Sequence record: PP274704.1
Source: Escherichia phage ECp13
Strand: one strand, 5' to 3'
Length of the DNA: 64,000 nucleotides
Below the pieces are notes generated by a model that saw only the letters and a list, made by a program, of their open reading frames with translations, was not told the origin of the DNA and did not search any database. Below, one piece after another: positions 7,571-53,778 of the stretch (position 1 is its first letter; each line of letters opens with the position of its first letter). The position numbers and the translations under genes were made by a program.

Positions 7571-9157
<1,587 letters not shown>

Positions 9158-9160
9158 GCT

Positions 9161-9214
9161 GTTTACAAGTCCCTCGTGTTGTGTTATAGTAGACTTACTG
9201 ACATAACATGAGGA
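9161..9214 (+). promoter_or_regulatory. early promoter plus 5' leader, copy A of the 54-nt repeat, upstream of alc
   Basis: GTTTAC, 18-nt spacer, TG-t-TATAGT, then a leader carrying GAGGA. Confidence 0.5.
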
Positions 9215-9221
9215 CTTTATG

Positions 9222-9725
9222 ATGGATTTGCAGCTTATTACTACTGAGATGGTCGTTGAAGCATACGGTGATACTACAGATGGGATTTCTGTATTTAAAG
9301 GAAATCGTCGAGTTGGATATATCACCGATCTTAAGAAAGATTTAGCTAAGCAAGTCAAGCGGAAAACGACCATTAAAGAATATCGAAATCGTCGTCTTGA
9401 GCAAGCCCGTGATATGCTTCCTGATGCGGTTGAGGAGATGAAAGTCTTTTTAGAAAATCAGCTTGCGAAATATGATTGTGATGTGTTCATTAATCAGACT
9501 CAACCTAATGTTCATATCAACAACTGCAAATGCTATATCATCGTTAATCCTTTAACGGGAAAACACCGTCTTGGAATTAGTAATCCAAATCGTAGCGCAT
9601 CGGATATGGCAGAAGATGTTGAGGCATGCTTTAAAATTTCTAAATCTCCTGCTGAACATCATATTTTAATTAACGGTCTTTCTCAAGACGATATTATAGA
9701 GGTTATTAAAACTTTATGCAATTAA
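9222..9725 (+). CDS. alc: Alc, inhibitor of transcription on cytosine-containing DNA
   Basis: 167 aa from the second ATG; sequence recognised as T4 Alc; follows rnlA as in T4. Confidence 0.8.
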   Translation: MDLQLITTEMVVEAYGDTTDGISVFKGNRRVGYITDLKKDLAKQVKRKTTIKEYRNRRLEQARDMLPDAVEEMKVFLENQLAKYDCDVFINQTQPNVHINNCKCYIIVNPLTGKHRLGISNPNRSASDMAEDVEACFKISKSPAEHHILINGLSQDDIIEVIKTLCN

Positions 9726-35101: not shown

Positions 35102-35130
35102 GTCTAAATACCGTGTAATAAATATATCTA

Positions 35131-35138
35131 TATTTATA
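35131..35138 (-). promoter_or_regulatory. late promoter TATAAATA for uvsW
   Basis: Plus-strand TATTTATA about 30 nt upstream of the uvsW start. Confidence 0.5.
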
Positions 35139-35151
35139 CTGAGGAAATATT

Positions 35152-35832
35152 ATGATAGATAAAGATTATATTGCAGAGCTGAAGGCTCTTGATGATAATA
35201 AAGAAGCTAAAGCTAAATTAGCTGAATATGCTGAACAGTTTGGTATAAAGGTCAAAAAGAATAAATCTTTTGATAATATCGTTAATGATATTGAAGAAGC
35301 TTTCCAGAAGCTCGCTAGTGAACCTATGCCAGAGACTGATGGGTTATCTATTAAAGACTTAATTGATGCTGCTGATGCCGCAGACGGATTAAAATATGAC
35401 GATGAAGAAGTCAATCCAGAGGCAGCACTTCTGATTGATTCTCCGGTTAAATCTGACATTAAAATTGAAGTAGTAGAAACGGATAAAATTCCTGAAAATA
35501 CCGATGTTTTGATTGAAGATACTCCTTTTGTTGAAGAAAAATTCGAACAGGCTGTAGCTGAGATTATTGAATCTGAAAAGCCGTCTGTATTTACTCTTCC
35601 GGAAAACTTTAGCCCAAATCTTCAGCTGATTGGAAAAAATCCAGGATTCTGCACTGTTCCTTGGTGGATTTACCAATGGATTGCTGAAACTCCGGATTGG
35701 AAATCTCACCCAACTAGTTTTGAACATGCGTCTGCTCATCAAACTTTGTTTAGCTTAATTTACTACATTAATCGTGACGGATCAGTTCTAATTCGTGAAA
35801 CACGCAATTCTTCTTTCGTAACATTAAAATAA
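35152..35832 (+). CDS. inh: putative Inh, inhibitor of the prohead protease
   Basis: 226 aa; position between uvsW and hoc; acidic N-terminal half. Confidence 0.55.
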   Translation: MIDKDYIAELKALDDNKEAKAKLAEYAEQFGIKVKKNKSFDNIVNDIEEAFQKLASEPMPETDGLSIKDLIDAADAADGLKYDDEEVNPEAALLIDSPVKSDIKIEVVETDKIPENTDVLIEDTPFVEEKFEQAVAEIIESEKPSVFTLPENFSPNLQLIGKNPGFCTVPWWIYQWIAETPDWKSHPTSFEHASAHQTLFSLIYYINRDGSVLIRETRNSSFVTLK

Positions 35833-35841
35833 GGATAACTT

Positions 35842-37260
35842 ATGGCTTTTACAGTTGATATAACTCCTAAAACACCTACTGGAGTTATTGATGAAACCAA
35901 GCAGTTTACTGCTGCACCAAGTGGTCAAACCGAAGGTGGAACTATTACCTATGCTTGGAGTGTAGATAATGTTCCACAGGATGGAGCTGAAGCAACTTTT
36001 GATTATGTATTAAAAGGACCTGCCGGTCAAAAGACTATTAAGGTGGTTGCAACAAATACAGTTCCAGAAGCTGATCCTGAAACAGCAGAAACTACGACAA
36101 CTATCACAGTTAAAAATAAAACACAAACAACTACCTTGGCAGTAACTCCTGCTAGTCCTCCAGCTGGAGTAATCGGAACAGCTGTCCAATTTACTGCTGC
36201 CTTAGCTTCACAGCCATCGGGCGCAACAGCCACGTATCAATGGCACGTTGACGGTTCTCCTGTAAGCGAAGCAACTTCTGCTACATTCAATTACACTCCT
36301 ACCACAAGTGGAGTTAAAAAAATCAAGTGCATAGCTCAAGTAACTGCGGCAGATTATGATGCACTGAGCGTTACTTCTAATGAAGTGTCACTGACAGTTA
36401 ATAAAAAGACGCAGACAACTACCTTAGCTGTAACTCCTAATAGTCCTTCAGCTGGAGTAATTGGAACCCCAGTTCAATTTACTGCTGCCTTAGCTTCTCA
36501 ACCCGATGGCGCAACTGCTACATATAAATGGTATGTAGATGATTCTCAAATTGGTGGAGAAACTAACTCTACATTTAACTATACTCCAACTACAAGTGGA
36601 GTAAAAAGAATTAAATGTGTAGCGCAAGTAACTGCAGAAAATTACAATGAAAAGGAAGTTACTTCCAACGAAGTGTCACTGACGGTTAATAAGAAGACAA
36701 TGAATCCACAGGTTGCATTGACTCCTCCTTCTATTAACGTTCAGCAAGATGCTTCGGCTACATTTACAGCTAATGTTACTGGAGCACCTGAAGCAGCACA
36801 AATTACTTATTCATGGAAGAAAGATTCTTCTCCTGTGGAAGGGTCAACTAACGTATACACCGTTGACACCTCATCTATTGGAAGTCAAACTATTGAAGTT
36901 ACTGCTGTCGTTACAGCAACTGACTATGACAGTAAAACAGTTAAAGCAACAGGCCAAGTTCAGGTGACTGATAAAGTTGCTCCGGAACCAGAAGGTGAAT
37001 TGCCTTATGTTCATCCTCTTCCACATCGTACTTCAGCTTATATCTGGTGCGGTTGGTGGGTTATGGATGAAATCCAAAAAATGACCGAAGAAGGTAAAGA
37101 TTGGAAAACTGAAGATCCAGATAGTAAATACTACCTGCACCGTTACACCCTTCAGAAGATGATGAAAGACTATCCAGAAGTTGATGTTCAAGAATCACGT
37201 AATGGATACATCATTCATAAAACTGCTTTAGAAACTGGTATCATCTATACCTATCCATAA
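35842..37260 (+). CDS. hoc: highly immunogenic outer capsid protein Hoc with four Ig-like repeats
   Basis: 472 aa; repeated Ig-like modules (...TQTTTLAVTP...VQFTAALASQP...ATYxW...) and a conserved C-terminal capsid-binding region. Confidence 0.8.
   Translation: MAFTVDITPKTPTGVIDETKQFTAAPSGQTEGGTITYAWSVDNVPQDGAEATFDYVLKGPAGQKTIKVVATNTVPEADPETAETTTTITVKNKTQTTTLAVTPASPPAGVIGTAVQFTAALASQPSGATATYQWHVDGSPVSEATSATFNYTPTTSGVKKIKCIAQVTAADYDALSVTSNEVSLTVNKKTQTTTLAVTPNSPSAGVIGTPVQFTAALASQPDGATATYKWYVDDSQIGGETNSTFNYTPTTSGVKRIKCVAQVTAENYNEKEVTSNEVSLTVNKKTMNPQVALTPPSINVQQDASATFTANVTGAPEAAQITYSWKKDSSPVEGSTNVYTVDTSSIGSQTIEVTAVVTATDYDSKTVKATGQVQVTDKVAPEPEGELPYVHPLPHRTSAYIWCGWWVMDEIQKMTEEGKDWKTEDPDSKYYLHRYTLQKMMKDYPEVDVQESRNGYIIHKTALETGIIYTYP
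36115..36696 (+). repeat. two tandem ~291-bp units inside hoc, each encoding one Ig-like domain
   Basis: Units 36115-36405 and 36406-36696 align end to end at roughly 80% nucleotide identity (estimated by eye). Confidence 0.6.
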
Positions 37261-37266
37261 TCATAA

Positions 37267-37291
37267 GGGCTTCGGCCCCTTTCTTCATTTT
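37267..37291 (+). terminator. rho-independent terminator after hoc
   Basis: GGGC-TTCG-GCCC hairpin followed by CTTTCTTCATTTT. Confidence 0.6.
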
Positions 37292-37348: not shown

Positions 37349-37564
37349 ATGAGATTGATTATGAGAACTGAGGTTGTGGTGTTTACACTCCATGAGTCTG
37401 GAAAGTCATTCATTGAAATTGCTCGTGAATTGAACTTACAGGCAAAAGAAGTGGCTGTATTATGGGCTCGAGCTATGACTGCTAAGAATAAATTTGAGAC
37501 TCGAGAAAAAGTTGTCTATAGAAAAAGACATATTAATAAAAAGGTGAAAAATGGAACAGTATGA
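37349..37564 (+). CDS. hypothetical protein
   Basis: 71-aa ORF. Confidence 0.35.
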   Translation: MRLIMRTEVVVFTLHESGKSFIEIARELNLQAKEVAVLWARAMTAKNKFETREKVVYRKRHINKKVKNGTV

Positions 37565-48894: not shown

Positions 48895-52035
<3,141 letters not shown>

Positions 52036-52076
52036 GATTTCTCCTAATCTGGGCTTTAATTAGTTTATAATATTTA

Positions 52077-53778
<1,702 letters not shown>

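Follow-up and report, generated by a model that had tools for sequence, protein, structure and literature searches.

The 64,000-nucleotide stretch of Escherichia phage ECp13 analysed here (the window; sequence record PP274704.1) carries a hoc gene that is longer than the hoc gene of T4, and this raises the question of what the additional length encodes, how old it is, and whether it is peculiar to this phage. The initial annotation, which was made from the letters alone, put the product at 472 aa against 376 aa for T4 Hoc. Both figures are correct; T4 Hoc is 376 aa in chain 5vf3_Z and is encoded by a gene of 1131 bp in NC_000866, such that the difference between the two proteins is exactly 96 aa.

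The gene and its flanking signals are as follows.

35842-37260, + strand: hoc coding sequence, 472 aa plus stop codon, from the ORF list, phmmer against 5vf3_Z, and PHROG 1149
35831-35835: Shine-Dalgarno sequence AAGGA, overlapping the stop codon of inh, read from the sequence
37265-37291, + strand: terminator-like GC hairpin with a T-run, directly 3' of the hoc stop codon, found by a consensus scan, as a pattern match only

The open reading frame is uninterrupted across its 472 aa. A phmmer search against PDB sequences returned T4 Hoc (5vf3_Z, 376 aa) as the top match with an E-value of 1.9e-222, and the two proteins share 97-99% identity across the parts that can be aligned. The alignment is broken into two stretches, in which residues 1-113 of the query correspond to T4 residues 1-113 and residues 190-472 correspond to T4 residues 94-376; the protein thus corresponds to T4 Hoc carrying a 96-residue insertion at domain 2. 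It also matches PHROG 1149 ('Hoc-like head decoration') at 6e-149. The order of the neighbouring genes in the window, uvsW (on the - strand), inh, hoc, 24.3, 24.2 and rnlB, is the same as that annotated for T4 in NC_000866, with hoc at its expected place in a late head-gene neighbourhood, between inh and 24.3/24.2/rnlB, and the 16-kb stretch surrounding hoc is approximately 97.5% identical to many Tequatrovirus genomes. These comparisons support identification of the gene as hoc of a Tequatrovirus (T4-like) phage, and as a long allelic form of what is predicted to be the non-essential capsid-decoration fibre.

The predicted expression signals of hoc, a ribosome binding site and the hairpin, are conventional. 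Upstream of inh and hoc, the + strand carries no exact copy of the T4 late promoter TATAAATA. A sequence with one mismatch to it, AATAAATA, lies upstream of inh at approximately 35117-35124, and an exact late-promoter match at 35131-35138 sits on the - strand, directed towards uvsW. The position of the hairpin is also labelled 'terminator' in the NBG2 and fPS-90 records.

The part of the gene that accounts for the difference from T4 is repetitive. Tandem Repeats Finder (TRF) reports a single array at 36106-36699 with a period of 288, 2.1 copies, 77% matches and 0% indels, and the motif KTQTTTLAVTP begins at residue 93 (nt 36118) and again at residue 189 (nt 36406). The two modules are referred to here as D2a and D2b.

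36118-36405, + strand: domain-2 module copy a (D2a), aa 93-188, from TRF, hmmsearch boundaries of 93-188, and Pfam Ig_2, BiPBP_C and PKD
36406-36693, + strand: domain-2 module copy b (D2b), aa 189-284, with a Pfam PKD match at 195-267

When placed in register, the two modules are identical at 221 of 288 nucleotides (76.7%) and at 74 of 96 amino acids, without indels. The best of 10,000 shuffles reached 35.8%, and the similarity of D2a and D2b is therefore far above chance. They are arranged head to tail and are of equal length, 288 bp or 96 codons, with 0% indels, as is expected of an in-frame tandem duplication. The initial annotation had noted this repeat as a pair of 291-bp 'near-copies' with roughly 80% nucleotide identity. 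The repeat is real, and the inner boundary at 36405/36406 was placed correctly, but the true period of 288 bp is one codon shorter (an offset of 291 gives 31% identity, as opposed to 76% at an offset of 288), both outer boundaries were 3 nt too far out, and the identity is a little lower than was estimated by eye. Using the Nei-Gojobori method, we obtained a dS of 0.91 and a dN of 0.15 for the comparison of D2a with D2b (dN/dS 0.16); the term 'near-copies' is thus generous, because the synonymous sites are near saturation.

The remainder of the protein is divided into three further domains.

35842-36117, + strand: Ig-like domain 1 (D1), aa 1-92, an AlphaFold beta domain with pLDDT 85-93 and a match to the D2 profile
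36694-36969, + strand: Ig-like domain 3 (D3) of the I-set type, aa 285-376, from Pfam I-set and AlphaFold (pLDDT ~90)
36970-37257, + strand: C-terminal capsid-binding domain, aa 377-472, the equivalent of T4 Hoc residues 281-376 (range and function from PMC10385173)

A PDB sequence search for RB49 Hoc returned only T4 Hoc, titin and ColH, so the Ig-like nature of the modules was assessed by structure prediction and Foldseek. An AlphaFold2 model, built from a 39-sequence alignment and with a mean pLDDT of 84, contains four all-beta domains at approximately residues 1-91, 93-187, 189-283 and 285-376, with pLDDT of about 90, and a helical/beta C-terminal domain of low pLDDT. Each of the D2 units is modelled with seven to eight strands at pLDDT above 90, as befits a PKD/Ig-like domain. 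The best Foldseek matches in the PDB, all with a probability of 1.0, are to four-Ig fragments of Dscam1, Sidekick-2 (Ig1-4) and ICAM-5 (D1-D4). Among Pfam families, PKD (PF00801) matches the protein in two stretches, the better of them at 195-267 (39.4 bits against a cut-off of 23.5; whole-protein E-value 5.9e-10), I-set matches at 289-374 (1e-05; 25.9 bits against a cut-off of 23.7), and Ig_2 is also above its gathering threshold. When D2a and D2b are combined into a profile, it detects both D1 (residues 4-78, 1.3e-11) and D3 (5e-9), each of which is approximately 37-42% identical to D2 in amino acid sequence.

T4 Hoc consists of four domains, three of them Ig-like and the fourth an alpha/beta capsid-binding domain (PMC10385173). 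With three Ig-like domains in T4 and 96 extra residues here, the ECp13 protein is predicted to have one additional Ig-like module. The initial annotation had proposed four Ig-like modules, and AlphaFold, Foldseek, Pfam and the D2 profile all point to this number; the first three of these also agree with a linear string of Ig-like domains at the N-terminus, as is characteristic of Hoc. Its attribution of the extra length to one Ig-like module is likewise borne out, the 96 aa being a second copy of domain 2. It had also named what would count against it, a T4 Hoc that itself had four Ig-like modules, and T4 Hoc has three.

The C-terminal part of the protein is conserved. D3 aligns with T4 Hoc residues 189-280, and residues 377-472 match T4 residues 281-376 over their whole length with only two substitutions (dN 0.013). 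The C-terminal domain is almost invariant across the 39 homologues, and the segments PYVHPLPHR, CGWWV and QESRNGY, all of which lie within it, are invariant. The ESRNG loop and the gp23-contacting aromatic residues, which define the capsid-binding domain of Hoc (PMC10385173), are kept. The predicted architecture of the protein is D1, tandem paralogous PKD/Ig-like modules D2a and D2b, D3, and a conserved C-terminal domain.

Comparison with known Hoc proteins places this architecture between shorter and longer relatives. T4 Hoc (376 aa; PDB 5vf3/8t1x; NP_049793) shares its late-gene context and the PKD/Ig-like fold of its D2, but it has one D2 module where the window gene has two. D2a is of the first-position type, a module that is absent from T4, whereas D2b is of the second-position type and is the closer counterpart of T4 domain 2. 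The T4 D2 is a mosaic, with a D2b-like middle (96% nucleotide identity) and a D2a-like 3' end encoding DYDALSV; the D1 region of the window gene is 89% identical to T4 D1 in nucleotide sequence. Hoc proteins of 472-474 aa from phages sb2, SP1, BF15, PP01, AR1, wV7, Sf21 and NBG2 have the identical D1-D2a-D2b-D3-C-terminal architecture, with 91-94% nucleotide identity to the window gene over the full 1419 bp and 85-95% identity between the proteins, and they differ from it only by allelic substitutions, chiefly in variable patches of D2 and D3. These proteins are annotated as 'Hoc-like head decoration' or 'PKD domain protein'. The Hoc proteins of UGKSEcP1 and UGKSEcP2 (568-570 aa) are encoded by the same gene with three D2 units, the third being a 'C-type' module; unit 1 of UGKSEcP2 is approximately 87% identical to D2a in nucleotide sequence and unit 2 is approximately 85% identical to D2b. 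The Hoc of PMBT63 is a more distant homologue (46% identical to T4 Hoc), which shares the principle of a conserved capsid-binding domain joined to a variable number of Ig-like domains, and which has its extra domain after D1, as in the window.

The long form is widespread. Among cluster representatives of the best 120 clusters (90% identity) taken from a search of 5.8 billion proteins, Hoc is 376 aa long in 74, 472 aa in 29, 568 aa in seven and 378 aa in six, with single clusters at 570, 567, 468 and 365 aa. The lengths of 376, 472 and 568 aa correspond to exactly one, two and three full D2 matches by hmmsearch. Several of the 472-aa clusters hold 58-167 members, and together they hold hundreds; the protein identical to that of the window (P0009) has nine members from ENA/Logan assemblies, and was found only there among the matches listed. 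The GenBank phage collection contains 680 records that match hoc, and dozens of these phages have a contiguous hoc of 1419-1425 bp with 91-94% nucleotide identity, including sb2, SP1, Sf21, PP01, AR1, wV7, NBG2 and BF15. In a spread sample of 60 evenly spaced records out of the 680, a hoc of 1419-1425 bp is present in 17 (28%), and most of the others are 1131 bp, the T4 length. The number of D2 units in the array thus varies across Tequatrovirus, being one, two or three. The four-Ig form is a common, already annotated allele within the known variability of Ig-domain number, and is in this respect ordinary and already known; between 1 and 10 Ig-like domains are described for Hoc homologues (PMC10385173). 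The literature searched mentions variable domain number in general terms only, and yielded no description of the 472-aa form, of a 96-aa D2 copy-number series in Tequatrovirus or of its recombinational contraction.

Clustering of 168 D2 modules at 85% amino acid identity gives three main types. The first contains 29 of the 30 first-of-two modules and all nine first-of-three modules, the second contains 22 of the 30 second-of-two and six of the nine second-of-three modules, and the third contains six of the nine third-of-three modules. As classified by sequence, the D2 module types are therefore specific to array position; the single-copy Hocs are spread over all three types. Column entropy over the 168 modules is greater in loops than in strands (0.63 vs 0.31, p 0.04), albeit a weak signal, and the differences between D2a and D2b fall outside the modelled strands in 14 of 22 cases, which is similarly weak (Fisher p 0.049).

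Copy number varies even among close relatives, and is mixed in 14 of 50 clusters formed at 97% identity of the D1, D3 and C-terminal sequence. Phage KNP1 provides a counterpart to the window gene itself. Its 1131-bp hoc is the window hoc minus one 288-bp unit, with five mismatches in 1131 nt; D1 is 100% identical, D3 and the C-terminal domain are 99.3% identical, and the 3' flank is the same save for a 1-nt indel. The single D2 of KNP1 has D2a-specific bases at seven of seven informative sites up to module nt 35, and from nt 43 it has D2b-specific bases at all informative sites but one, which matches neither copy.

36153-36160, + strand: KNP1 crossover interval in D2a (partner 36441-36448 in D2b), from a deletion scan and a three-way alignment

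The composition of the KNP1 D2 is what unequal homologous recombination, or single-strand annealing, between diverged repeats would be expected to produce. The KNP1 sequence is an UNVERIFIED, unannotated GenBank record and the example rests on that assembly, with cases at the protein level giving independent support. For 16 of the 74 Hocs of 376 aa, removal of 96 aa from a sampled 472-aa Hoc reproduces the sequence with at most 12 mismatches; the breakpoint is internal in 14 of these 16, and at least five distinct intervals are represented. The Hoc of phage ChristianSchoenbein (P0072), for example, is P0015 minus one unit with no mismatches, while 18 differences separate it from the closest 376-aa relative. 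A comparison of P0027 with P0006, which leaves five mismatches after removal of one unit, suggests that contraction from three units to two also occurs. Descent of the window allele itself from a sampled three-unit allele by recent loss of one unit is not supported, as even the best candidate shows 32 differences.

Judged from these alignments, contraction from longer to shorter hoc alleles is recurrent and leaves chimeric D2 modules with differing breakpoints. Because a two-unit allele with complete A and B modules cannot have descended from a chimeric short D2, the direction of change is clear for these cases. Equal crossovers between unsampled single-copy alleles of different D2 type could in principle be an alternative source of chimeric single D2 modules.

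How the two-unit array came about is a related question. It could have been put together by unequal recombination of two single-copy hoc alleles, such that an A-type and a B-type D2 were stacked, giving the same architecture by a different route. T-even phages recombine intensively, the D2 of single-copy Hocs may be A-like, B-like or C-like, and a TV(K/N)(N/K)KT sequence that is common to the D1/D2 and D2/D3 junctions could mediate the necessary misalignment. We nonetheless consider this origin unlikely. Many of the single-copy D2 modules are chimeric derivatives of two-copy alleles and not pure parental types, and multi-copy alleles keep the order A-B(-C); taken together, these observations are better accommodated by one ancient array that loses units than by repeated stacking.

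The divergence of the units gives an indication of the age of such an array. D2a is 94% identical in nucleotide sequence to unit 1 of sb2, 87% to unit 1 of UGKSEcP2 and 78.8% to T4 D2, and D2b is 93% identical to unit 2 of sb2, 97% to the single D2 of KNP1 and 86.8% to T4 D2. The first and second units inside one phage (the window phage, sb2 or UGKSEcP2) share 74-77% nucleotide identity. Modules at the same position are thus closer across phages (87-97%) than neighbours are within a phage, which indicates that the duplication predates the divergence of these phages. Between the window gene and T4, dS (Nei-Gojobori) is 0.38 in D1, 0.51 in D3 and 0.25 in the C-terminal domain. By these estimates, D2a and D2b are old paralogues that have been kept under purifying selection.

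The two units adjoin each other in frame, are equal in length and lack indels, and these features might be taken as signs that domain 2 was duplicated in tandem only recently and only in the lineage of this phage, a fresh and unusual event, as the wording 'near-copies' in the initial annotation implies. We regard this as highly improbable and reject it on the basis of dS and the orthology of the units across phages: the dS between the units is two to four times that between the window and T4 for the remaining gene (0.25-0.51), each unit is closer to its same-position counterparts elsewhere than to its neighbour, and the two-unit architecture is present in many independent genomes. An assembly or annotation artefact, either a mis-joined repeat or two fused ORFs, is rejected as having next to no likelihood, for although tandem repeats are a classic cause of assembly errors, these units differ at 23% of positions, so that an assembler cannot collapse or expand them, the ORF is intact, and the same form occurs in many independent records (the nine Logan/ENA members of P0009, the hundreds of members in 472-aa clusters, and the dozens of GenBank phages with a contiguous 1419-bp hoc).

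The explanation that we favour, and which is very probably correct as a whole, is that the window gene is the long form of Tequatrovirus hoc, in which an old in-frame duplication of D2 underlies an array of one to three units, with short alleles arising by recombination.

The consequences for the virion can be considered by analogy with T4. Once the head has expanded, T4 Hoc binds as a monomer at the centre of the gp23 hexamer and extends outward as a fibre, with 155 fibres per head, each approximately 180 Å long (PMC10385173). The 472-aa Hoc would presumably dock in the same way, as a monomer at gp23 hexamer centres and with up to 155 per head, since its binding domain is near identical to that of T4. 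The extra module of approximately 10 kDa would lengthen the fibre by about one Ig domain; a T4 fibre of about 180 Å for four domains suggests an addition of about 45 Å. In the Hoc of PNJ-9, residues S183-L184-T185 of D2 have been reported as a MUC2/fucose-binding site that is critical in that protein (PMC11853027). The S-L-T motif is present twice in the window Hoc, at 183-185 in D2a, with the same numbering as in PNJ-9, and at S279-L280-T281 in D2b. The long allele may therefore offer two S-L-T sites per fibre, and the reach and valency for mucin or for cell-surface glycans would change with the added module. A role of the window Hoc as a mucus-adherence (BAM) adhesin that binds mucin glycans through its Ig-like domains is putative.

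The 'bacteriophage adherence to mucus' model is built on Hoc, which is also a main display scaffold for T4 nanoparticle vaccines. The window itself adds little, as the four-Ig form is common and already annotated. Together, however, the window phage with its four Ig-like domains and KNP1 with three appear to form a near-isogenic natural allele pair, differing essentially by one module, and the contractions described above indicate that T4-like short alleles can derive from longer ones. We propose, tentatively and with rather less than even confidence, that the D2 array is a recombination-driven cassette of one to three position-specific Ig modules, which would let phage populations tune fibre length and glycan valency on short timescales, with frequent contractions (as in KNP1 and P0072) balanced by selection for longer forms and with strong synonymous divergence of the copies slowing their loss by recombination. 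This reading is plausible and is partly evidenced by the contraction events, and its adaptive side is a proposal. Hoc length and the number of Ig modules would set both the reach of the capsid and the count of glycan-binding surfaces that it presents.

When one 288-bp D2 unit is removed from the window hoc, the remaining sequence is 99.6% identical to hoc of phage KNP1 (KX452694.1, locus L002, positions 301-1431; the record is flagged UNVERIFIED and is without annotation). The 16 kb around hoc is only 97.7% identical between the two phages. As judged from these sequences, KNP1 and the window phage constitute a natural near-isogenic pair with three-Ig and four-Ig forms of Hoc.

The sequences flanking hoc contain the following features.

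35117-35124, plus strand: AATAAATA, the sole plus-strand candidate promoter 5' of inh and hoc; not an exact consensus
35131-35138, minus strand: TATAAATA, an exact match to the T4 late-promoter consensus, facing uvsW
37349-37564, plus strand: ORF at the gene 24.3 position, 71 aa

The two promoter motifs are arranged back to back within the 50-bp spacer between uvsW and inh (35102-35151). In T4 the homing-endonuclease gene segE (618 bp) sits between uvsW and inh, whereas it is missing from the short gap in the window, and ECp13 is therefore a segE-minus allele at this site. Downstream of hoc, the ORF at the 24.3 position shares 14 nt with the beginning of 24.2 and is longer than T4 24.3, which is annotated at 56 aa (171 bp), although this difference may simply reflect start-codon choice.

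Several of the phage records matched by the window hoc have split matches or annotations. In Shigella phage KNP5 (KX452698.1 / NC_055713.1; records H46 and H65) the match is in three pieces over 2072 bp (109965-112036) with 96% query coverage, and the KNP5 record, at 193.6 kb, exceeds the usual length of a Tequatrovirus genome. Inserted or rearranged DNA within or beside hoc could account for this, as could an assembly problem. The hoc region of Escherichia phage T2 (PV648363.1; record H86) spans 1117 bp (8283-9399), and its annotation is divided among three features, each labelled 'Hoc-like head decoration', which suggests that the gene is frameshifted or fragmented. In BYEP02 (OR757454.1; record H96) the match is in two pieces across 1496 bp (50672-52167), where a PKD-domain protein and a hypothetical protein are annotated; both T2 and BYEP02 look like carriers of disrupted hoc alleles. 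Two Hoc protein clusters from bacterial assemblies of Shigella sonnei and Salmonella enterica, P0016 and P0111, carry the NCBI name 'endonuclease', and these are probably mis-annotated phage Hoc proteins from contaminating or co-assembled phage contigs.

Among 120 Hoc homologues, variation in D2 is clustered in a few patches, at module positions 12-16, 22-24, 34, 43-56, 66-68 and 78-84, and these are combined in many different ways among the phages. Such a variety of combinations indicates that hoc alleles have undergone fine-scale mosaicism or gene conversion, on top of changes in D2 copy number.
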